From Geobacter sulfurreducens PCA (lineage in GTDB: Bacteria > Desulfobacterota > Desulfuromonadia > Geobacterales > Geobacteraceae), in NCBI RefSeq assembly GCF_000007985.2, contig NC_002939.5:2130001-2162000 (forward strand): DNA of 32,000 bases, given 5' to 3'. The position numbers and the translations under genes are program-made. Below the pieces are notes generated by a model. The model had not been told where the DNA came from and searched no databases. It saw only the letters and a program-made list of their open reading frames with translations. This document shows positions 63 through 7,350 of the stretch, in pieces. The stretch's first letter is position 1, and each line of letters starts with the position of its first letter.

Positions 63-3000
63 TTACCAGGTCGTCAGACCAACCGCCCGGCGCAGAAGAA
101 TCAGTACATCGTTGATGTCAATCTTGCCGTTGCCGACCGGCTTGGAGGTAACCGGATCGACCGGCGCCACATCACCCATGCTCTGCACTGTCGAGGTCAA
201 CAGGGTGGGATCCGCGACCGCCTTGAGAACGATGAGCGCGTCATTGGCCGTAATCGCTCCGTCGCCATCCACATCGCCCTTGATGATCACGATGTTATTG
301 ACGGTTACGGTTACGGCGGTCGAAACCTTCGAGTTGCCGGCCGCATCATAGGCCTTGGCGGTCAGGCTGTAGACGCCGTTAGCAACGGTGGAGGTATCCC
401 AGCTGTAGCTGTAGGGAGAGGTCGTATCCGTGCTCGCGAGGACATTGTTGACGTAGAATTCGACTTTGGCAACTGCCAGGTTGTCCGTTGCGGTGGCATT
501 GACGGAGACGACACCGCTTACCGTTGCGCCGCTGGTCGGGGCCGACAGTGACACGGTCGGCGCGGTTGCATCGTTGGCGACCTTCACCGTCACGGTTGTC
601 TCGCCGATATTGCCTGCCGCATCATAGGCCTTGGCGGTCAGGGTATGGGTGCCATCACTTACGGAGGTCGTGTTGAGGCTGTAGGTAAAGGGCGAGCTCG
701 TGTCGGTGCGCTTGAGCACGTTGTCCAGGTAGAACTCGACCTTGGTCACCTTCACGTTGTCCGATGCACTGGCGCTGACGGTAATGCTTCCTTTGACGGT
801 CGCGTTATTGGCCGGAGAAGTGATCGATACGGTCGGCGCAGTGGTGTCGCCGATCTGGTTGTTCACCGTTACCGATACGGAGGTAGATTGGCCGATGTTG
901 CCGGCAGCGTCATAGGCCTTGGCAGTCAGGGTGTAGGTGCCGTTGGCCGAGGTCGTGGTGTTCCAGCTGTAGCTGTAAGGGGCGGTTGTCACCGTGGAAG
1001 CGACCGTGCCGTTCACCATGAATTCCACCTTGGTCACGCCCACGTTGTCAGAGGCTGTTGCGCTGACGGTCACCGTTCCGCTCACGGTCGCACCATTAGC
1101 CGGGGCACTCACCGCCACCGTCGGAGCAGCAGTATCGGACGGCAGATTGTAGGTTACCACCAGTTTCGGCCGCAGATTGGTATCGGACGCCTCGCTGGAA
1201 GCGAAGAGCCTGTAGCTGTCAACGGCGGCCTTGTTGGAGGAGTTGAGCAGAACACCCCTGTTGGCGGCCGGCGTCGCCAGCCAGGTCTTGACCAGATTGG
1301 TTATATTCCAGGCTTTATAACCAACGGTCTTGTCAACCAGAGGTGCATCAACCGGCGTGTCGATATCGGACTGGGCCAGGGGCACCCCGCCGTAAGCCAC
1401 ACTGCTCGCGGTCCAGGCATTGGTCCCGTCGTAGGTATTGCCAGTGCTTGAAGCGACAACCGGGTTCTTGTTGATGATGGCGGAGACCGGAATTTCGTAA
1501 GCGTCGTCACCACCGCCTTCAGTCAGGTAGAGGTAGAGCGTGGCGCTCTGGATCTCGGCATTGGCAGGCAGTGCGGAAACGTCCCACTTCATCACGACTG
1601 CGTTGGCCGGCGTGGCAGCGGGCCAGGTATAGGTGCTGAGGCTTACGCCGGTGGCGTTCACGTCGTCGTTGATATTCAGGAAGGTGTCTTCCACGGTATT
1701 CGGGAAATTGGCGCCAAAGGCATTACCGAAGATGGCCGTGTTGCTTCCCGACGGGGGAGTCGTCACATTGTTCACGCTCACGGTTACGCTGCTCGACTGC
1801 CCCACATTGCCCGCCGCGTCATAAGCCTTGGCGGTCAGGGAGTAGCTGCCGTTGACCGTGGAGGTGGTATCCCAGCTGTAGTTGTAGGGAGACGTCGTAT
1901 CCGACCCTTTGAGCACGTTGTTCACATAGAATTCGACCTTGCTCACACCGACGTTGTCCGACGCCGTGGCGGCCATACTCACCGTACCGGTCACGGTTGC
2001 ACCATTGGCGGGGGAGCTCACGGCAACGGTCGGAACCGTGGTATCGGCGACCGTATTGCTTACGGTGACCGTAACCGAGGAAGACTGACCAACGTTGCCC
2101 GCCGCGTCATAAGCCTTGGCGGTCAGGGAGTAGCTGCCGTTGGCCGTGGAGGTGGTATCCCAGCTGTAGTTGTAGGGAGACGTCGTATCCGACCCCTTGA
2201 GCACGTTGTTCACATAGAATTCGACCTTGCTCACACCGACGTTGTCCGACGCCGTGGCGGCCATGCTCACCGTACCGGTCACGGTCGCGCCATTGGCGGG
2301 GGAGCTCACGGCAACGGTCGGAACCGTGGTGTCGGCGACCGTATTGCTTACGGTGACTGCCACCGAGGAAGACTGACCAACGTTGCCCGCCGCGTCATAA
2401 GCCTTGGCCTGGAGGGTGTACGACCCGTTGGCATACGACGAGGTGTTCCAGGTTATCGAGTAGGGAGCCGAACCGTAGGTCGCGTAAAGGGAACCATTAA
2501 CATAGAGCTCCACCTTTGACACGCCCATGGCGTCGGTGGCGGAAACGTTTACCGTAACGGTTCCCGACACGGTTGAACTGCTGGTCGGAGAGGTAATGGA
2601 AGCCGTAGGAGCCGTCGTATCATTTACCACTGTCACGGAAAACGCCGTGGACTGTCCCACGTTCCCGGCGGCGTCGTACGCTTTGGCCTGGAGAGTGTGA
2701 GTGCCGGCGGAAAGCTGGGTGGTGTTCAGGCTCACACTGTACGGAGATGAGGTGTCGGTTCCTTTGAGGACGCCGTCCACATAGAGTTCAACCGATGTGA
2801 CGCCCACATTGTCAGTGGCGCTGATGGCAACGCTGGTGGTACCGGAGATGGACGAGCCCGAGGCGGGGGATGTAATCGAAACGGTGGGGGCAGTTGCTTC
2901 GGCCGCGCTTACGATATTTGAGTAGGTGCTTTCAGTGCCGGTGGCATCGTAGGCGGTGACGGCGAAATAATAGGTCTTGCTCGGGTCGAGACCGGTGAGA

Positions 3001-3206
3001 GTGGTGGAGGTCACTTTGCCGACCGTTCCGGTCCCGCTGAAGGGAGGGCCTGCCGAGTCGGCGTTGTAGTAGACCTTGTAGCCGGCAACGGTCGTTTCAG
3101 TGTTTGCATCCCACTGCAGGGTCACGTCCCGGGCCTGGCTGGCTGCCACCATGGTAAAACTGAGCAGCCAGGCAAGAATAAGAGTTGTTAGCGTGCGGGT
3201 TTTCAT
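63..3206 (-). CDS. Large secreted surface protein: signal peptide, FN3, 4 Ig-like repeats, DNRLRE/CBM-like beta-sandwich module, 3 Ig-like repeats, C-terminal dockerin-type repeat pair
   Basis: The ORF spans 63..3281. I place the start at ATG 3206, giving MKTRTLTTLILAWLLSFTMVAASQA, a typical signal peptide, with AAGGAG 7 nt upstream. Seven repeats end in the AKAYDAAGN motif. The central block runs from WDVSALPANAEIQSATLYLYL to SSEASDTNLRPKLVVTY. The tail carries GDVDGDGAITANDALIVL and GNGKIDINDVLILL, which are dockerin-like Ca-binding repeats. Confidence 0.85.
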   Translation of the reverse strand: MKTRTLTTLILAWLLSFTMVAASQARDVTLQWDANTETTVAGYKVYYNADSAGPPFSGTGTVGKVTSTTLTGLDPSKTYYFAVTAYDATGTESTYSNIVSAAEATAPTVSITSPASGSSISGTTSVAISATDNVGVTSVELYVDGVLKGTDTSSPYSVSLNTTQLSAGTHTLQAKAYDAAGNVGQSTAFSVTVVNDTTAPTASITSPTSSSTVSGTVTVNVSATDAMGVSKVELYVNGSLYATYGSAPYSITWNTSSYANGSYTLQAKAYDAAGNVGQSSSVAVTVSNTVADTTVPTVAVSSPANGATVTGTVSMAATASDNVGVSKVEFYVNNVLKGSDTTSPYNYSWDTTSTANGSYSLTAKAYDAAGNVGQSSSVTVTVSNTVADTTVPTVAVSSPANGATVTGTVSMAATASDNVGVSKVEFYVNNVLKGSDTTSPYNYSWDTTSTVNGSYSLTAKAYDAAGNVGQSSSVTVSVNNVTTPPSGSNTAIFGNAFGANFPNTVEDTFLNINDDVNATGVSLSTYTWPAATPANAVVMKWDVSALPANAEIQSATLYLYLTEGGGDDAYEIPVSAIINKNPVVASSTGNTYDGTNAWTASSVAYGGVPLAQSDIDTPVDAPLVDKTVGYKAWNITNLVKTWLATPAANRGVLLNSSNKAAVDSYRLFASSEASDTNLRPKLVVTYNLPSDTAAPTVAVSAPANGATVSGTVTVSATASDNVGVTKVEFMVNGTVASTVTTAPYSYSWNTTTSANGTYTLTAKAYDAAGNIGQSTSVSVTVNNQIGDTTAPTVSITSPANNATVKGSITVSASASDNVKVTKVEFYLDNVLKRTDTSSPFTYSLNTTSVSDGTHTLTAKAYDAAGNIGETTVTVKVANDATAPTVSLSAPTSGATVSGVVSVNATATDNLAVAKVEFYVNNVLASTDTTSPYSYSWDTSTVANGVYSLTAKAYDAAGNSKVSTAVTVTVNNIVIIKGDVDGDGAITANDALIVLKAVADPTLLTSTVQSMGDVAPVDPVTSKPVGNGKIDINDVLILLRRAVGLTTW
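1809..2384. repeat. Two near-identical 288-bp tandem units inside the surface-protein gene; a third copy begins at 2385 but diverges within a few dozen nt
   Basis: The anchor string gcccgccgcgtcataagcc occurs at 1809, 2097 and 2385, a period of 288 nt or 96 aa. Manual alignment of units 1809-2096 and 2097-2384 shows about 9 mismatches. The protein repeat is TVADTTVPTVAVSSPANGATVTGTVSMAATASDNVGVSKVEFYVNNVLKGSDTTSPYNYSWDTTST.NGSYSLTAKAYDAAGNVGQSSSVTV. Confidence 0.9.
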
Positions 3207-3279
3207 AAACGGGCTCCTTTGTACTTCTTTCGGCGTCCGCTTCTCCTTTTCCTGCCCGCGCCTTTCGAGTCGCGAGCAC

Positions 3280-3337
3280 AAAAAAGAGAAACAGCCCGCC
3301 TTAGTCTTTTGATGGACTAATGAGGAACCTGTTTCTC
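3280..3337 (-). terminator. Intrinsic terminator forming the expression platform of A-type aptamer copy 1
   Basis: On the minus-strand RNA, GAGAAACAG (3337-3329) pairs with CUGUUUCUC (3294-3286) and is followed by UUUUUU (3285-3280). The 5' arm contains the aptamer's 3' P1 strand GAAACAG, so P1 and the terminator are mutually exclusive. Confidence 0.7.
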
Positions 3338-3428
3338 GCCAACCCGGCTATCCTGAAAACCCTAGGACATTTCAGGACCCGTAGCTTTGTGTCCCCAGGT
3401 TACCCTGGGTTTACCCCTTCGGAAACAG
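3329..3428 (-). promoter_or_regulatory. GEMM-I class (c-di-GMP-I / cGAMP family) riboswitch aptamer, A-type copy 1
   Basis: The minus-strand RNA reads CUGUUUCCGAAGGGGUAAACCCAGGGUAACCUGGGGACACAAAGCUACGGGUCCUGAAAUGUCCUAGGGUUUUCAGGAUAGCCGGGUUGGCGAGAAACAG. It matches the remembered Vc2/GEMM-I pattern GGGCAAACC-[hairpin with GNRA loop]-GGGACGCAAAGCC-[P2]-AGCNGGGUU. P1 is CUGUUUC/GAAACAG. One hairpin is CCCAGG-GUAA-CCUGGG and P2 is UCCUGAAA/UUUCAGGA. Confidence 0.75.
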
Positions 3429-3482
3429 TACTGCTTGATTATTCCTTTTGTTGGTATTATCGGCCCTGTTTTGCAGAACCGT

Positions 3483-3498
3483 TGTGACTCGTATCACC
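3483..3498. promoter_or_regulatory. CRP/FNR-type palindrome TGTGA-CTCGTA-TCACC between the two aptamers (copy 1)
   Basis: It matches the TGTGA-N6-TCACA consensus at 9 of 10 positions. The same motif with the same flank (TCACCAAA) recurs at 6219..6234. In both copies its centre lies about 60 nt upstream of the 5' end of the A-type aptamer P1. Confidence 0.45.
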
Positions 3499-3570
3499 AA
3501 AACCGGCCATGTCGCAAAAAAGATTCAACCACATGATTTACCGTCTATTTTCGTTGCGGTTGGCTTCCCG

Positions 3571-3629
3571 AAAAAAAACAAAAAAAAGCCGGGGCCGTAT
3601 ACCATTTCAGGCATTTCGGCAACCCGGCT
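3571..3629 (-). terminator. Intrinsic terminator overlapping the 3' strand of B-type aptamer copy 1
   Basis: The minus RNA reads CCGGG-UU-GCCG [19-nt loop] CGGC-C-CCGG, followed by CUUUUUUUUGUUUUUUUU. The 5' arm is the conserved AGCCGGGUUGCCG strand of the aptamer. Confidence 0.65.
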
Positions 3630-3697
3630 GTCTCTGTGAGACCCTGTAGGCTTTCCGCCCCATCCTCGCGGATGGTTGAGTATTATCGTGTACCGCC
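3613..3697 (-). promoter_or_regulatory. Divergent GEMM-I-like aptamer, B-type copy 1
   Basis: The minus RNA reads GGCGGUACACGAUAAUACUCAACCAUCCGCGAGGAUGGGGCGGAAAGCCUACAGGGUCUCACAGAGACAGCCGGGUUGCCGAAAU. It has the GEMM-I layout: AACC, then a GNRA-capped hairpin (CCAUCC-GCGA-GGAUGG), GGNNGNAAAGCC, a short P2 (GUCUC/GAGAC) and AGCCGGGUUGCCG. The junction strands are non-canonical. Confidence 0.6.
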
Positions 3698-3717
3698 TAT
3701 TCAATTTTCAGCTGCTG

Positions 3718-3746
3718 TTGATACACCCCTTTGTCCCCCCTGTCAA
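3718..3746 (-). promoter_or_regulatory. Candidate sigma70-type promoter for leader cassette 1
   Basis: The minus strand reads TTGACA (3746-3741), a 17-nt spacer, then TATCAA (3723-3718), about 20 nt upstream of the B-type aptamer. The analogous TTGACT-17-TACTAA occurs in cassette 2. Confidence 0.4.
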
Positions 3747-3869: not shown

Positions 3870-4835
3870 TTAGGGCACGACCTTGAAAATCCTGAGATTC
3901 TTCGGCGCCGACAAAACTTCCGGCGGCACCGATCCGCAGCCAATGGGCTGGGTCGATACGACTACGTTATCGATAAGCTCTCCGACGGTTGAATGGGTAC
4001 CGTCATGATGATAAAGGCTCAACCAGAGATTCCGGATTTTGAGGGACGATGTGGTTCTGATCCACAGATCCTGATAGTCACCCAGCAGCTTTGAATCCAG
4101 CCAAGTCGCCAGGCGACCGTCCGCTCCCACCCCCGTAGTGGTTGGCGTGCCCATATCGAGCATTTGCTCGACGCAGTACCACTGCCCCGCCACCAAGTTA
4201 GGAAGGGATTCTGTCGGACGATGCTGCGGTTGTTTGCAGTAATATGCCCCGCTGTCGTAGACGCAGGGCAATGAGTCGCCCCAGCAATTGCCAGACGGAT
4301 TGGAGCAGTCCTGGTACATGCCCCGGTAGTAGCTGTAGGCATAGGGCGTTGCAGGACCTTCCATGTACTGCACGAAAAAGCCGGCCCAGTCACTACCGGT
4401 TGGCCTGATGCCGGATGCTCCGACCAGATTCCGGTCTCCAGCCGCCAAACCACCGCCGTGATTACGGGCACTGAAGTTGAACCCTGGTTCATACATGAAG
4501 TACCAGCGAGCATAGAGTTTGTCATACCCGGAAGATAGGACTTTAAACAGATCGGATCCCCCGCCCTGCCCTGCAGGCACCCGCAAACGGATTGCCCGGT
4601 TCGCAGGATCACCTGCTGGTCCCGTGTTGGTCACAATAAGGTTTTCCGTGTCAGGATTGCCGTCGTAGTCGCTGAAGTTGGCCTTGGGATTAGTTCCCTC
4701 GAAATCCTCGCAAAAAACTGTTCCTGCAGGGGGATTCGAGCATTCGTTCCGCGAGATGCCTGCCGACGCCATGCCGGCGGCGAGCAACAAAAAGGCTGAA
4801 ACGAGGCAACCTGTTCTCGTGAATGAAAGTTCCAT
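3870..4835 (-). CDS. Secreted hypothetical protein, possibly a jelly-roll (ConA/LamG-like) glycan-acting fold
   Basis: The ORF spans 3870..4856. I prefer ATG 4835 (MELSFTRTGCLVSAFLLLAAGMASAG, a signal peptide) because GGAG lies 8 nt upstream. It is Cys-rich. The C-terminal strand GELIDNVVVS is typical of lectin/lyase jelly rolls. Only 14-35 nt separate it from the upstream gene, so it is likely co-transcribed. Confidence 0.7.
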   Translation of the reverse strand: MELSFTRTGCLVSAFLLLAAGMASAGISRNECSNPPAGTVFCEDFEGTNPKANFSDYDGNPDTENLIVTNTGPAGDPANRAIRLRVPAGQGGGSDLFKVLSSGYDKLYARWYFMYEPGFNFSARNHGGGLAAGDRNLVGASGIRPTGSDWAGFFVQYMEGPATPYAYSYYRGMYQDCSNPSGNCWGDSLPCVYDSGAYYCKQPQHRPTESLPNLVAGQWYCVEQMLDMGTPTTTGVGADGRLATWLDSKLLGDYQDLWIRTTSSLKIRNLWLSLYHHDGTHSTVGELIDNVVVSTQPIGCGSVPPEVLSAPKNLRIFKVVP

Positions 4836-4870
4836 GCGCTTCACTCCGGCTCCCATAGAGACTGTTCGAA

Positions 4871-5950
4871 TCAGTTAACAACCTTGAGACCACTGGGAGG
4901 CGCTATTGTTGCGGTTCCCCCACCCGAGCTGGTACCAAACGTAATCTGCTTGCTGGCGCTGGGACTACCATTGGCATCAACCACATAGAGATACGCCGTA
5001 GAGTTGGTGGGAAAACTTCCTTGGTTAACCGTAACCTGCAACTGCCCGTCAGTCCAGGTATTGGTGGGAATCTGCATTTCGCATTTAGTTGCACTGGAGA
5101 AGTTGGCATTGTCACATATCATGACACGAGAGAAGGTGTTATCAACATATATGTCGTCCATCCACGAAGTGATTGCTGGTGGAGAGTTTCCGCCAGCATC
5201 CCACCCAATCATCCAAACATAGTCAAAGTTAAACGCTGCACAATTAGCCCAAGAAGAATTGTTAGCTAAATATTTGCCATTTATTTTAAGCGAATACGTT
5301 CTGCTAGCACCATCAATCATTACTTCGTGAAAGTTCCATTGGCCAACATTGCCATTCCAATTAGCCCAGCCTTCGTTATTACAATAACCTGTATCGCTTC
5401 TATAAATATAATTGTGCATCTGGGTCCATGACATGGTTTTGTTAGACACATCAGAGCTACTGGACAATCTTATAAACTTACTGGAATGATCACCTGATAC
5501 TGGATTGGTTCCAGGCTTCCACCACCAAGAGACATAGATTTTATTAGTTCCAGCAATTCGCCGACCCTCCAGTAATCCCTGGGTTGTACTTGTGGCTCTG
5601 TAAGTCGCTGTGCTCAACCCACGCTGTTCGCTGGCCGTAGTTGAATACTTTACACAAGCGCCGCCATCCCAGGTGCATTGTGTTTCCCAAGGCTTACCTG
5701 ACCCAGTCGGGACAGTTGCCCCATTGGCAAGTCCCGAATACGCTGATTGGTTTTCCACGGTATCCCAGAACTGGGGCGCCACCGTAGTCTTTGCGCCAAA
5801 TCCGCTACCCGAGATGGTAACTACTTGGCCATTGGAGAGCGTTGAGTTACTCACCGATGTAATCGACGGGGCAGCGAGAGCGCCGAGCGGAACCAGAAGT
5901 GGAATGAGGAGTGACGGGACTAACGCCTGAAGAGTCCTCTTGGTTTTCAT
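4871..5950 (-). CDS. Secreted IPT/TIG-like + LamG/ConA-like domain hypothetical protein
   Basis: The start is ATG 5950 with GGGAGG upstream. MKTKRTLQALVPSLLIPLLVPLGALAAP is a signal peptide. SITSVSNSTLSNGQVVTISGSGFG is IPT/TIG-like. The central region WWWKPG..., WMDDIYVDN is jelly-roll-like. A second IPT-like beta domain lies near the C-terminus. Confidence 0.75.
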   Translation of the reverse strand: MKTKRTLQALVPSLLIPLLVPLGALAAPSITSVSNSTLSNGQVVTISGSGFGAKTTVAPQFWDTVENQSAYSGLANGATVPTGSGKPWETQCTWDGGACVKYSTTASEQRGLSTATYRATSTTQGLLEGRRIAGTNKIYVSWWWKPGTNPVSGDHSSKFIRLSSSSDVSNKTMSWTQMHNYIYRSDTGYCNNEGWANWNGNVGQWNFHEVMIDGASRTYSLKINGKYLANNSSWANCAAFNFDYVWMIGWDAGGNSPPAITSWMDDIYVDNTFSRVMICDNANFSSATKCEMQIPTNTWTDGQLQVTVNQGSFPTNSTAYLYVVDANGSPSASKQITFGTSSGGGTATIAPPSGLKVVN

Positions 5951-6016
5951 GTTTAACTACCTCCCTGCTACTCAATAGTTTACTCGTTTTCCCGGCGTAC
6001 ACCGAGACTTTTCCCA

Positions 6017-6070
6017 ACAAAAAACAGCCCCCCGCGGCAATGGTACGACTTGTCGACAGATGGGCTGTTT
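6017..6070 (-). terminator. Intrinsic terminator forming the expression platform of A-type aptamer copy 2
   Basis: On the minus RNA, AAACAGCCC (6070-6062) pairs with GGGCUGUUU (6030-6022), followed by a U-run. The 5' arm overlaps the aptamer 3' P1 strand. Confidence 0.65.
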
Positions 6071-6166
6071 CTTCGCCAACCCGGCCATCCTGAAATACCT
6101 AGGACGATTTCAGGACCCGTGGCTTTGTGTCACCAGGTTACCCTGGTTTTACCTCTTCGGAAACAG
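6065..6166 (-). promoter_or_regulatory. GEMM-I class riboswitch aptamer, A-type copy 2
   Basis: The minus RNA reads CUGUUUCCGAAGAGGUAAAACCAGGGUAACCUGGUGACACAAAGCCACGGGUCCUGAAAUCGUCCUAGGUAUUUCAGGAUGGCCGGGUUGGCGAAGAAACAG. The architecture is the same as 3329..3428. Two differences are compensatory: CCCAGG/CCUGGG becomes ACCAGG/CCUGGU, and GCUA/UAGC becomes GCCA/UGGC. Confidence 0.75.
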
Positions 6167-6218
6167 AGCGAATATTTTTTTATTTGTTTATACTTTCGTC
6201 CACCTGCTAAAAATTAAA

Positions 6219-6234
6219 TGTGATTCGTGTCACC
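6219..6234. promoter_or_regulatory. CRP/FNR-type palindrome TGTGA-TTCGTG-TCACC (copy 2)
   Basis: The half-sites and the 3' flank match 3483..3498 while the spacer bases differ. It occupies the same position relative to the A-type aptamer. Confidence 0.45.
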
Positions 6235-6258: not shown

Positions 6259-6310
6259 AAAAAAAATGCCGGGAGCCGCTACCCATGAACTGGTATTTCG
6301 GCAACCCGGC
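6259..6310 (-). terminator. Intrinsic terminator overlapping B-type aptamer copy 2
   Basis: The minus RNA reads GCCGGG-UU-GCCG [loop] CGGC-U-CCCGGC followed by AUUUUUUUU. Confidence 0.65.
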
Positions 6311-6379
6311 TGTCTCGTGGAGACCCTATAGGCTTTCCGCCCCATTCTCGCGAATGGTTTAGTATTATCGTCTACCGCC
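6295..6379 (-). promoter_or_regulatory. Divergent GEMM-I-like aptamer, B-type copy 2
   Basis: The minus RNA reads GGCGGUAGACGAUAAUACUAAACCAUUCGCGAGAAUGGGGCGGAAAGCCUAUAGGGUCUCCACGAGACAGCCGGGUUGCCGAAAU. Relative to copy 1, the hairpin changes from CCAUCC/GGAUGG to CCAUUC/GAAUGG, which is compensatory. Confidence 0.6.
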
Positions 6380-6391
6380 TGCTTTGTGCTT

Positions 6392-6420
6392 TTAGTACAT
6401 GAGTTGACGGTTCAAGTCAA
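6392..6420 (-). promoter_or_regulatory. Candidate sigma70-type promoter for leader cassette 2
   Basis: The minus strand reads TTGACT (6420-6415), a 17-nt spacer, then TACTAA (6397-6392). The layout parallels cassette 1. Confidence 0.35.
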
Positions 6421-6675: not shown

Positions 6676-7350
6676 ATGATACCCCCAGGCAAGTTATCTC
6701 TTATTATGCTTTTAACATTGTTACTGGCGGGGCCTTCCGCGTGGAGCTACCCCGTGCAATACACGTTGGATGGGTACGTAATTCAGGGCCCCGGCATTGA
6801 TGATTCGGCAGGCTTTCTTGACAATATGGGGATTACCGTGGGAAGTCATGTTTCCTACACCGTTGTCATAGACCTGGATGCCAGAGGGACGGTGTTAATG
6901 AGTGACGGCACCGTAACCGAGCGGACAGACCCGTATGGTAGAGGGACATTCTATGCTCACTACGCCGGGGGCTCGACCATCACTTCTGACAATTATCTGA
7001 GCTCATACAATGGAATATCCGAAAACAACTATGGCGGGAACAAGTGGTTGACCAGCACCTTTTCTGAACGCTGGCTCAGTGTGAGCAGTGGAAACAACTA
7101 TCTTTCGTTCTACGACATGCTGCTGCAACCGGATGCCCTCGGGGGGTGGTCGGCAAGTTCCGCTCGCGCTTTCGGGGCCGGCACCATGCGCAACACCATT
7201 TTCGACGAGTTCGGTAACAGTTCCAAATTCTACTTCCTGGCTCAAATAACGAACGCAGAAACCGTTCCCGTGCCCGAACCATCAACCTTCGCACTTCTTG
7301 GGGCCGGACTTGCCGGAATTATCCTTCTCAGAAGAAAGAAGTACTTTTAA
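6676..7350 (+). CDS. PEP-CTERM sorting-domain secreted protein
   Basis: GAGGAGGG lies upstream of the ATG. There is an N-terminal signal peptide (LLTLLLAGPSAWS). The C-terminus VPVPEPSTFALLGAGLAGIILLRRKKYF has the VPEP motif, a TM helix and a basic tail. Confidence 0.9.
   Translation: MIPPGKLSLIMLLTLLLAGPSAWSYPVQYTLDGYVIQGPGIDDSAGFLDNMGITVGSHVSYTVVIDLDARGTVLMSDGTVTERTDPYGRGTFYAHYAGGSTITSDNYLSSYNGISENNYGGNKWLTSTFSERWLSVSSGNNYLSFYDMLLQPDALGGWSASSARAFGAGTMRNTIFDEFGNSSKFYFLAQITNAETVPVPEPSTFALLGAGLAGIILLRRKKYF

Follow-up and report, generated by a model that had tools for sequence, protein, structure and literature searches.

Duplicated tandem GEMM-I leaders with two pocket types beside an exopolysaccharide locus of Geobacter sulfurreducens

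Two leaders on the minus strand of a 32,000-nucleotide (nt) stretch of the Geobacter sulfurreducens PCA chromosome (NC_002939.5, positions 2,130,001 to 2,162,000; the whole stretch is called the window, and coordinates count from its first letter) each carry two complete GEMM-I riboswitches in series, and the two riboswitches of a leader differ at the nucleotides that contact the ligand. The upstream aptamer of each pair has the A/A/C pocket of a GEMM-Ib riboswitch, and the downstream aptamer has a G/A/G pocket, apparently uncharacterised, which was met again in at least 12 diverged loci, with compensatory changes in the aptamer and with the terminators kept. A probability of about 60% is given to a composite-leader model, in which two paralogous leaders, each made of a GEMM-Ib ON switch, an internal Crp/Fnr-type promoter (P2) and a G/A/G ON switch, would control secreted Ig-like/fn3 proteins. 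Among the RNA receptors of bacterial cyclic-dinucleotide signals, GEMM-I riboswitches are the principal group, and the discovery of the single-nucleotide change of G20 to A, which shifts recognition to cGAMP (3',3'-cyclic GMP-AMP), started research on cGAMP signalling in Geobacter. In the G/A/G aptamers the other site of base recognition is altered in turn: C92 has become G, again as a conserved change, and the equivalent of A18 has changed along with it.

Four aptamers in two leaders

Four matches to the Rfam family RF01051 reach the gathering level in the window and form two tandem pairs. An earlier sequence-only reading of this DNA had described one tandem leader, here called leader A; both of its units are confirmed, and a duplicate 2.7 kb upstream, leader B, had been overlooked. 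A consensus promoter and terminator scanner passed over all four long-loop terminators and both promoters, and targeted folds were used. The features of leader A and its gene are as follows.

3718 to 3746, minus strand: putative promoter P1, from sequence reading (-35 TTGACA 3746-3741, 17-nt spacer, -10 TATCAA 3723-3718)
3610 to 3694, minus strand: aptamer 1, GEMM-Ib type (RF01051 match 3691-3615, 43.1 bits)
3571 to 3629, minus strand: terminator 1, from a targeted fold (stem 3629-3587, U-tract 3586-3571)
3483 to 3498, no strand assigned: Crp/Fnr-type palindrome GGTGA-TACGAG-TCACA, conserved between leaders A and B
3456 to 3461, minus strand: -10-like hexamer GATAAT of the putative P2, 30 nt after the palindrome centre, with a predicted start near 3449
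3329 to 3428, minus strand: aptamer 2, GEMM-I fold with a G/A/G pocket (RF01051 match 3425-3335, 61.1 bits)
3280 to 3337, minus strand: terminator 2, from a fold (GAGAAACAG 3337-3329 with CUGUUUCUC 3294-3286, then U6 3285-3280)
63 to 3219, minus strand: ribosome-binding site (RBS) AAGGAG 3219-3214 and coding sequence (CDS) 3206-63 for a 1047-amino-acid (aa) secreted protein with a signal peptide (Pfam)

Leader B repeats this order.

6392 to 6420, minus strand: putative promoter P1, aligned to that of leader A (TTGACT 6420-6415, 17-nt spacer, TACTAA 6397-6392)
6292 to 6376, minus strand: aptamer 1, GEMM-Ib type, A20 = 6363, C92-equivalent = 6301 (RF01051 match 6373-6297, 45.7 bits)
6259 to 6310, minus strand: terminator 1, from a fold (stem 6310-6268, U8 6266-6259)
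6219 to 6234, no strand assigned: palindrome GGTGA-CACGAA-TCACA, conserved between leaders A and B
6192 to 6197, minus strand: -10-like hexamer GAAAGT of the putative P2, aligned with GATAAT of leader A and 30 nt after the palindrome centre
6065 to 6166, minus strand: aptamer 2, G/A/G pocket, G20 = 6153, A18-equivalent = G6155, G92 = 6076 (RF01051 match 6163-6072, 60.7 bits)
6019 to 6072, minus strand: terminator 2, from a fold (stem AGAAACAGCCC...GGGCUGUUU, U-tract 6024-6019)
3870 to 5965, minus strand: operon, from open reading frames (ORFs) and Pfam (RBS 5965-5960, CDS 5950-4871, CDS 4856-3870)

Each of the four aptamers has its own terminator. Structure-based alignments (158 aptamers at first, 171 distinct ones after later additions) give all of them the two-hairpin junction fold, with P1a carrying a GNRA loop, P1b, and a closing helix P1. 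Our own covariance model R1, built on 63 aptamers with the GEMM-I structure and used to align all matches, scores aptamer 1 of leaders A and B at 82.1 and 82.5 bits. Helix P1 of aptamer 1 in leader A pairs GGUA (3694-3691) with UGCC (3613-3610), plus CG/CG. The 5' arm of terminator 1, AGCCGGGUUGCCG, recycles the 3' strand of P1b, the C92-equivalent and the 3' strand of helix P1 of this aptamer; the fold has -30.2 kcal/mol (z = -5.07), and none of 200 shuffles was equally stable. Aptamer 2 begins 143 nt after the end of terminator 1. Its helix P1 joins CUGUUUCCG (3428-3420) with CG-A-GAAACAG (3338-3329), and the 3' strand GAAACAG, whose partner CUGUUUC stands at 3428-3422, lies inside the 5' arm of terminator 2 (-21.2 kcal/mol, z = -2.70).

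These results agree with most of what the sequence-only reading had proposed for leader A. The TTGACA-17-TATCAA sequence is present on the minus strand where it had been placed, as a putative promoter; an upstream GEMM-I-like aptamer at about 3697-3613 and a second one at 3428-3329 both exceed the RF01051 gathering score of 35; the terminators at 3629-3571, with its long U-tract and shared aptamer strand, and at 3337-3280, with GAAACAG and U6, both fold; and the distance of about 140 nt between the units is correct. Three of its descriptions have to be changed. The upstream aptamer had been called divergent and is typical of the Geobacteraceae, its A20/C92 signature and scaffold being common to 107 of 171 distinct aptamers. 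The downstream aptamer had been called more canonical, and its overall score is indeed higher, yet its pocket has G at the equivalents of C92 and of A18 (A12 in Gs1761), and in leader A it matches the orphan family RF03168 at 62.1 bits against 61.1 bits for RF01051. The "giant" surface protein downstream is large and secreted, and at 1047 aa not giant. A match of leader A to the GlsR24 snoRNA family (12.3 bits) was weak and set aside as noise.

In leader B, terminator 1 folds with -24.6 kcal/mol (z = -3.44; 0/200 shuffles equally stable) and terminator 2 with -28.5 kcal/mol (z = -2.49), or -23.5 kcal/mol in a second fold run. Aligned over their full length, leaders A (3760-3207) and B (6440-5951) have 78% identity. 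The aptamers are near-identical, with a compensatory change from C-G to A-U in P1a of aptamer 2 in leader B; the terminator interiors and the spacers have diverged, and the terminators still fold. The spacer lengths are about 56 nt apart. Judged from this alignment, the two leaders (3746-3207 and 6420-5951) are paralogous composite leaders.

The two pocket types are defined by three nucleotides. G20 has been reported to read G-alpha of the ligand on its Hoogsteen edge, C92 to form a Watson-Crick pair with G-beta, and A47 to intercalate between the bases, and cGAMP riboswitches have A for G20 (A14 in Gs1761) (PMC6140456). The ligand contacts given for 4YAZ are G8, A11, A12, U13, A14, C15, A41, A42, G74, C75 and C76 (PMC7288161), and because of this list the first C of UGCCG was taken as the equivalent of C92. 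All four window aptamers have A47. The upstream aptamers carry A20 (3681 in leader A) and C at the C92-equivalent (3619 and 6301); the downstream aptamers carry G20 (3415 in leader A) and G at position 92 (3339 and 6076), with G3417 at the A18-equivalent of leader A. By the A/A/C signature the two upstream aptamers are classed as ordinary Geobacteraceae GEMM-Ib.

The rarity of the downstream pocket was seen in a survey of 120 genomic stretches containing the 3' strand of the upstream aptamer. Among the first 158 aptamers the pocket letters were A/A/C in 100, G/A/C in 53, G/A/G in 3 and C/A/C in 1, and the G/A/G group consisted of both downstream aptamers of the window plus one strain copy. Position 92 is C in 160 of the 161 aptamers outside the G/A/G class. 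The A18-equivalent (A12 of Gs1761, two nt before position 20) is A in 147 of 160 C92 aptamers; among 10 members of the G92 class it is G in 8 and C in 2, and never A. A register shift of one nt, by which the C of GGCG would become the ligand partner, is less parsimonious because the junction strand lengths equal those of the closest C92 relatives (L012, L067 and L069; surveyed loci are cited by L numbers) and because the invariant CG/CG top of helix P1 would be lost.

The pocket letters are also those by which Rfam names its variants, with U...A...U at columns 20, 47 and 92 in UAU and G...G...C in GGC. Within the clan, each window aptamer has matches to three families, which are the parent, GGC and UAU. 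The upstream aptamers reach 46.0 and 46.8 bits with c-di-GMP-I-GGC (RF03167), where 59 is needed, and have A at 47, and they are not assigned to that family. A separate observation concerns a Geobacteraceae metagenome-assembled genome (MAG; L054:1361-1440), in which an aptamer of the GEMM-Ib scaffold (…AAAUGCUCAACC…GGGGCGGAAAGCC) has G for A at position 20 and stands in tandem upstream of a normal A20 GEMM-Ib; it is apparently a natural reversion at the specificity position.

The G/A/G class and its candidate ligands

Two samplings extended the G/A/G variant beyond the window. A metagenome scan with a pattern of the 3' strand that required G92 gave nine contigs, all GEMM-I by R1 and by RF01051 (55-64 bits). 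A second sampling through homologues of the N-terminus of the leader A protein gave two further leaders with the variant, L136 and L145, the latter with GCCGAGUU, which lies outside the reach of the DNA pattern. Eight other leaders from the homologues have GEMM-Ib aptamers (L137, L138 twice, L139 twice, L140, L146 twice), and none of the leaders of leader A protein homologues sampled has a canonical G20/C92 singlet. Clear fn3/Big_7 orthologues stand downstream of seven G/A/G members.

The members have kept the fold. In 10 full-length distinct members, standard pairs fill 268 of 270 pair cells; P1 and P1a show double changes that compensate each other, and the distal hairpins of P1b are variable. 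In a formal count on the aptamer core 99.1% of the cells are paired and four pairs have changed on both sides, which none of 500 shuffles reached; slid controls gave 28-47%. Pairs were counted with explicit anchors, since in the MAFFT alignment of the class the 3' strand of helix P1 and the terminators were off by one column, and the formal counts cover the well-aligned core only. A terminator that reuses the 3' strand of helix P1 is present in 10 of 10 full-length members (-16 to -23.5 kcal/mol), with unrelated inner sequence. G92 lies outside the terminator stem, and the expression platform therefore does not dictate it. On these sequence grounds the G/A/G aptamer is regarded as a conserved class and not an accident. 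Two points weigh on the other side: nine of the members came from a pattern that required G92, and the class is fairly closely related, so that G92 could be an inherited and tolerated substitution instead of a selected one.

Several metagenome contigs end inside or just upstream of a G/A/G aptamer (L128:1-90, L135:1-90 and L127:1301-1377); contig breaks are expected at repeated riboswitch sequences, so upstream tandem partners may be under-counted. An odd GEMM-like element was also seen before distant fn3 homologues (35-36% identity) in L142:2340-2460 and L144:2350-2440. It keeps P1b and the 3' junction (GCCGGGCUACCGAAGG) without a normal P1a hairpin and scores 17.6 bits with R1; a sigma-54 activator gene lies upstream in L142.

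The sequence-only reading had suggested that the two aptamers may sense different dinucleotides, which is plausible since their ligand-contact positions differ (A/A/C vs G/A/G). For the upstream aptamer, the pocket letters make cGAMP the most likely ligand; on the other side, A20 alone is no guarantee of cGAMP selectivity, some natural A20 aptamers having been reported to bind c-di-GMP (cyclic di-GMP) as well (PMC6140456). For the downstream aptamer the predicted ligand is a cyclic dinucleotide, most likely c-di-GMP or cGAMP and possibly another one.

Tentatively, the downstream aptamers may be described as an undescribed GEMM-I specificity class, with G20/A47/G92 and a nucleotide other than A at the A18-equivalent, which may read a dinucleotide other than c-di-GMP. 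Candidates would be cGAMP bound in the direction opposite to that in GEMM-Ib, so that its G would be recognised by G20 and its A by G92, or a dinucleotide containing a pyrimidine that pairs with G92. It is also possible, and held with the same caution, that the G/A/G aptamer still senses c-di-GMP, either because G92 is tolerated or because G-beta is recognised by its Hoogsteen edge, in the way that G20 recognises G-alpha, and that the leader integrates cGAMP and c-di-GMP. G20 and A47 are retained, and the RF01051 scores of 55-64 bits hold for all members; for the parent aptamer the binding of c-di-GMP is picomolar (PMC6140456), and even a variant of reduced affinity could therefore respond at physiological concentrations. 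Against a c-di-GMP ligand stands the role of C92, which forms the Watson-Crick pair with G-beta, belongs to the best conserved positions (PMC3764141, PMC6140456) and is nearly invariant outside the class in our survey, together with the co-varying A18-equivalent, which is G or C in all 10 class members, and the position of G92 outside the terminator stem, which leaves the expression platform as no explanation.

Only a little less likely, and held as tentatively, is the reading of the G/A/G aptamer as a second evolutionary route to cGAMP. G20 would read guanine as in Vc2, G92 would pair with adenine by a G-A imino pair, and the leader would sense the same signal twice with a sharper, more digital response. 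The fn3/Big_7 orthologues carry either GEMM-Ib (8 leaders) or G/A/G (3 leaders) and never a canonical G20/C92 singlet; because the two types alternate on orthologous genes they appear to occupy the same regulatory niche, and a cGAMP whose G lies in the alpha site and whose A faces G92 would explain this alternation. Homotypic tandems also dominate both the survey (AA 16, GG 7 and AAA 1 of 30 clusters) and the literature (PMC9481103, PMC6456294). The proposal is, however, purely stereochemical reasoning, the purine-purine pair would be wider than the Watson-Crick pair that it replaces, and L117 shows that a canonical G20/C92 aptamer can follow GEMM-Ib riboswitches before an fn3 gene. A reading of the downstream aptamers as decaying c-di-GMP riboswitches that have lost their function would fit the mutated core ligand-pairing nucleotide and is very improbable, as the fold is retained, with compensatory changes, in at least 12 diverged copies, which also keep a matched terminator that covaries with helix P1, and the same gene association.

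The outcome would matter in either direction. If the specificity is altered, the class would be a new receptor, possibly pointing to a new signal, and two cyclic-dinucleotide inputs and a transcription factor would converge on one leader controlling biofilm-matrix proteins. If c-di-GMP is still bound, the "invariant" Watson-Crick partner would be dispensable.

A probable promoter module between the riboswitches

The sole conserved block in the spacers of leaders A and B is GGTGA-N6-TCACA. A class II Crp/Fnr-dependent promoter has TGTGA-N6-TCACA centred at -41.5. The motif GTGA-N6-TCAC has a background of 47 copies in 974 kb, or one per 20.7 kb; within 200 nt upstream of 173 surveyed aptamers it occurs 17 times, always 52-67 nt from the aptamer start, and L145 adds one further palindrome with a -10. 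A -10-like hexamer of the CGATAnn type starts 30 nt past the palindrome centre in L130, L134, L136, L137, L138, L117 and L145. In at least 15 loci the spacing of palindrome and -10 is consistent with class II Crp/Fnr geometry, the palindromes having 9-10 of 10 matches.

The module is present in 8 of the 9 G/A/G riboswitches with upstream DNA. It precedes G/A/G singlets that have no upstream riboswitch (L130, L132, L134, L136 and L145) and GEMM-Ib singlets of the same gene family (L137, L138, L139, L140 and L146); L133 repeats the full order of the window, with TTGACA-17-TACATT, GEMM-Ib, terminator, palindrome, G/A/G aptamer and terminator. The palindrome and -10 thus look like a regulon-wide promoter module for riboswitch-controlled fn3/Ig-like genes. 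Because the same module stands before singlet riboswitches at a fixed spacing, the downstream switch probably has its own promoter and is transcribed also on its own. A palindrome of the xGTGA-N6-TCACx type was also seen in L117:1604-1621.

A candidate for the factor that binds the palindrome is a Crp-family protein (cNMP_binding and HTH_Crp_2), whose gene (L139:4143-4868, minus strand, Geomonas oryzae RAHW01000002.1) lies beside GEMM-Ib-controlled fn3/Big_7 genes with the palindrome.

Computation shows the folds, pocket letters and terminator overlaps, and also that the class and the promoter module are conserved. Under the composite-leader model, each leader would work in five steps. The sigma-70-type P1 would start the transcript. 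Without ligand the 3' strand of the GEMM-Ib aptamer, including the ligand-pairing C, would form terminator 1 and stop transcription, and with ligand the polymerase would read through. The palindrome, centred 41.5 nt before the second start, and the GATAAT-like -10 would form an activator-dependent P2. The GAAACAG strand of the G/A/G aptamer would serve as the 5' arm of terminator 2 and so make a second ON switch, after which come the RBS and the gene. The downstream switch would gate all expression and the upstream switch only the P1 transcripts, with the logic (P2 OR (P1 AND cGAMP)) AND ligand 2. What we infer from these features is that there are two promoters, that the switches act as ON switches in vivo, that ligand 1 is cGAMP and that ligand 2 is a cyclic dinucleotide.

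The ON direction had been predicted by the sequence-only reading from the mutual exclusion of ligand-bound fold and terminator, and this prediction is sustained: in both units the 3' strand is the 5' arm of the terminator, and aptamer and terminator are expected to compete because both use the same nucleotides. The cGAMP riboswitch of Geobacter metallireducens pilM, characterised experimentally, has the same design; it is an ON switch, and its terminator captures the ligand-pairing C75 (PMC9262584). In G. sulfurreducens, RNA-seq has detected cGAMP-dependent termination in tandem GEMM-Ib leaders (PMC6456294).

A pure two-input AND gate, as that reading had also proposed, would be the special case of the composite-leader model in which P2 is silent. 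It presumes P1 as the sole promoter and both ligands as necessary, with the palindrome acting as an RNA hairpin, a roadblock or a repressor site. Both terminators do lie between P1 and the gene, the tandem order is kept in leader A, leader B and L133, and the P2 -10 elements are imperfect and unlisted by the consensus scanner. The gate is nevertheless unlikely, since the spacer holds a conserved Crp/Fnr-type site and a -10-like element at class II spacing, and this module, 52-67 nt from the aptamer, also stands before singlets (L130, L132, L134, L136, L137, L138, L140 and L145), as a promoter and not an RNA element would; as an RNA hairpin the palindrome would have a stem of just 4-5 bp.

Still less probable is a separate upstream unit, in which P1, the GEMM-Ib aptamer and terminator 1 mainly serve to make a short RNA that ends at the terminator or to shield the gene against read-through from upstream, while P2 and the downstream riboswitch drive the gene and the tandem look is incidental. 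Most G/A/G riboswitches are indeed singlets with their own promoter module, and the difference of about 56 nt between the A and B spacers would fit such independence. On the other hand, the order of P1, GEMM-Ib, terminator, palindrome and G/A/G aptamer is kept in A, B and L133 and in the strain variant L002, no ORF or other function of a short RNA is evident, and control of read-through by tandem GEMM-Ib leaders has been documented in Geobacter (PMC6456294).

Several points tell against the composite-leader model. The -10 hexamers of P1 are weak (TATCAA in A, TACTAA in B); the P1 of leader A was unlisted by the promoter scanner, its -10 being without T at position 6, and boxes of the same type are found at the aligned position of leader B (TTGACT-17-TACTAA) and in L133 (TTGACA-17-TACATT). 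In leader B the -10 of P2 (GAAAGT) is a poor one. It is also conceivable that the palindrome serves as a site for a repressor or a roadblock. The adjacency of a Crp-family gene is a single case: tblastn of the Geomonas regulator against the other loci and the window found only itself, and no Crp-family gene is among the window ORFs.

Locus context and comparison with known systems

The proteins behind the two leaders are both secreted or carry signals for it. The 1047-aa protein of leader A has fn3 and at least seven Big_7 Ig domains by Pfam (E = 2.8e-147 over 7 stretches), and its C-terminus is weakly dockerin-like, with Dockerin_1 below its cut-off. In leader B, CDS 5950-4871 encodes a 359-aa protein with a signal peptide and an IPT/TIG domain, and CDS 4856-3870 is a 328-aa ORF (321 aa in public assemblies) with no Pfam family. 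A protein-based scan of genome contigs gave no relatives of the 359-aa TIG protein. The best protein and RNA relatives belong to Desulfuromonadaceae, Geobacteraceae and Geomonas.

The plus strand carries a divergent gene for a PEP-CTERM protein (6676-7350), and an exopolysaccharide locus fills the rest of the window on the minus strand (7416-31955). Its genes encode NeuB, a CBS-nucleotidyltransferase, an OpgC-like acyltransferase, a pyruvyl transferase, a polysialyltransferase-like protein, a Wzx-type flippase, GT2 and GT4 glycosyltransferases, a deacetylase, Wzy, an asparagine-synthase-like enzyme, PGA_cap and CapK. With this locus around them, the riboswitch-controlled proteins stand in a biofilm-matrix context. 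In another strain (L002:1934-2238; Logan SRR15998595), leader B (window 6376-6065) is found with an identical 359-aa protein and a few base differences in aptamer 1; the upstream neighbour is a HAD hydrolase and not the PEP-CTERM gene, which means that leader and gene have been moved or rearranged together, as one cassette.

The upstream aptamers resemble the known GEMM-Ib riboswitches of Geobacter (Gs1761 of pgcA; pilM of G. metallireducens). They have the same A20/A47/C92 and the Geobacteraceae scaffold ACGAUAAUACU.AACC...GGGGCGGAAAGCC...GACAGCCGGGUUGCCGAAAU, and nothing essential differs. As in pilM, their predicted terminators (3629-3571 and 6310-6259) would include the ligand-pairing C (PMC9262584). 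The putative P2 differs from class II Crp/Fnr promoters in its position inside a transcribed leader, downstream of another riboswitch.

In a published census, c-di-GMP-I riboswitches form tandems more often than any other type (347 doublets, 12 triplets), and a triplet of Bacillus thuringiensis is a known case; pocket types were not separated, and the logic-gate table holds no pair of c-AMP-GMP and c-di-GMP-I (PMC9481103). The window leaders are like these tandems and like GSU2885a/b of G. sulfurreducens (PMC6456294) in having two complete riboswitches with their own terminators before genes for extracellular or surface proteins. They are unlike them in their mixed pockets, A/A/C and then G/A/G, and in the promoter-like module between the two. 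Among the 30 tandem clusters of our survey, AA (16), GG (7) and AAA (1) were found alongside three AG clusters (the window pairs including the strain copy), two GA clusters (L054 and L078) and one A-A-A-G cluster (L117). The last (L117:1434-2243, plus strand, MAG MFD02923.bin.1.133) has three GEMM-Ib aptamers, each with a terminator, and then a canonical G20/C92 aptamer (74 bits) before an fn3-like secreted protein; this final aptamer apparently has a platform that sequesters the Shine-Dalgarno sequence (CCUCCUC...GAGGAGG) and not a terminator. Five GEMM-Ib aptamers, as two doublets and a singlet, were seen in 2.5 kb of Geobacter sp. UBA698 (L026:5550-7997, plus strand), a further region dense in cGAMP riboswitches. 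The clusters of Desulfobacca acetoxidans (PMC9481103) are similar to the window in having riboswitch clusters within a few kb, G20 and A20 GEMM-I in one locus and separate terminators; they differ in that the partner there is an adenosylcobalamin (AdoCbl) OFF switch and that A20 and G20 are not in the same leader.

Among the named variant families, the downstream aptamers resemble the orphan c-di-GMP-I-UAU (RF03168). The scaffold is shared, and the scores of 62.1 bits (leader A) and 59.8 bits (leader B) are below the gathering score of 65.9; the class member L135 reaches 66.7 bits. RF03168 has U/A/U where the downstream aptamers have G/A/G, the match line is blank at columns 20 and 92, and the CG top of helix P1 is kept in G/A/G. 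No description of C92G or of the G/A/G class was found in the literature, where the 2015 and 2017 founding and variant papers might mention it or a mixed A20/G20 tandem. Rfam-based pipelines call all four window aptamers "c-di-GMP-I", which hides the two pocket types. Overall, the tandem leader itself is known in kind and the G/A/G pocket variant is apparently uncharacterised; the class has its own gene set of secreted fn3/Ig-like proteins and its own probable promoter type, and in this locus it is wired twice behind a cGAMP-type switch.

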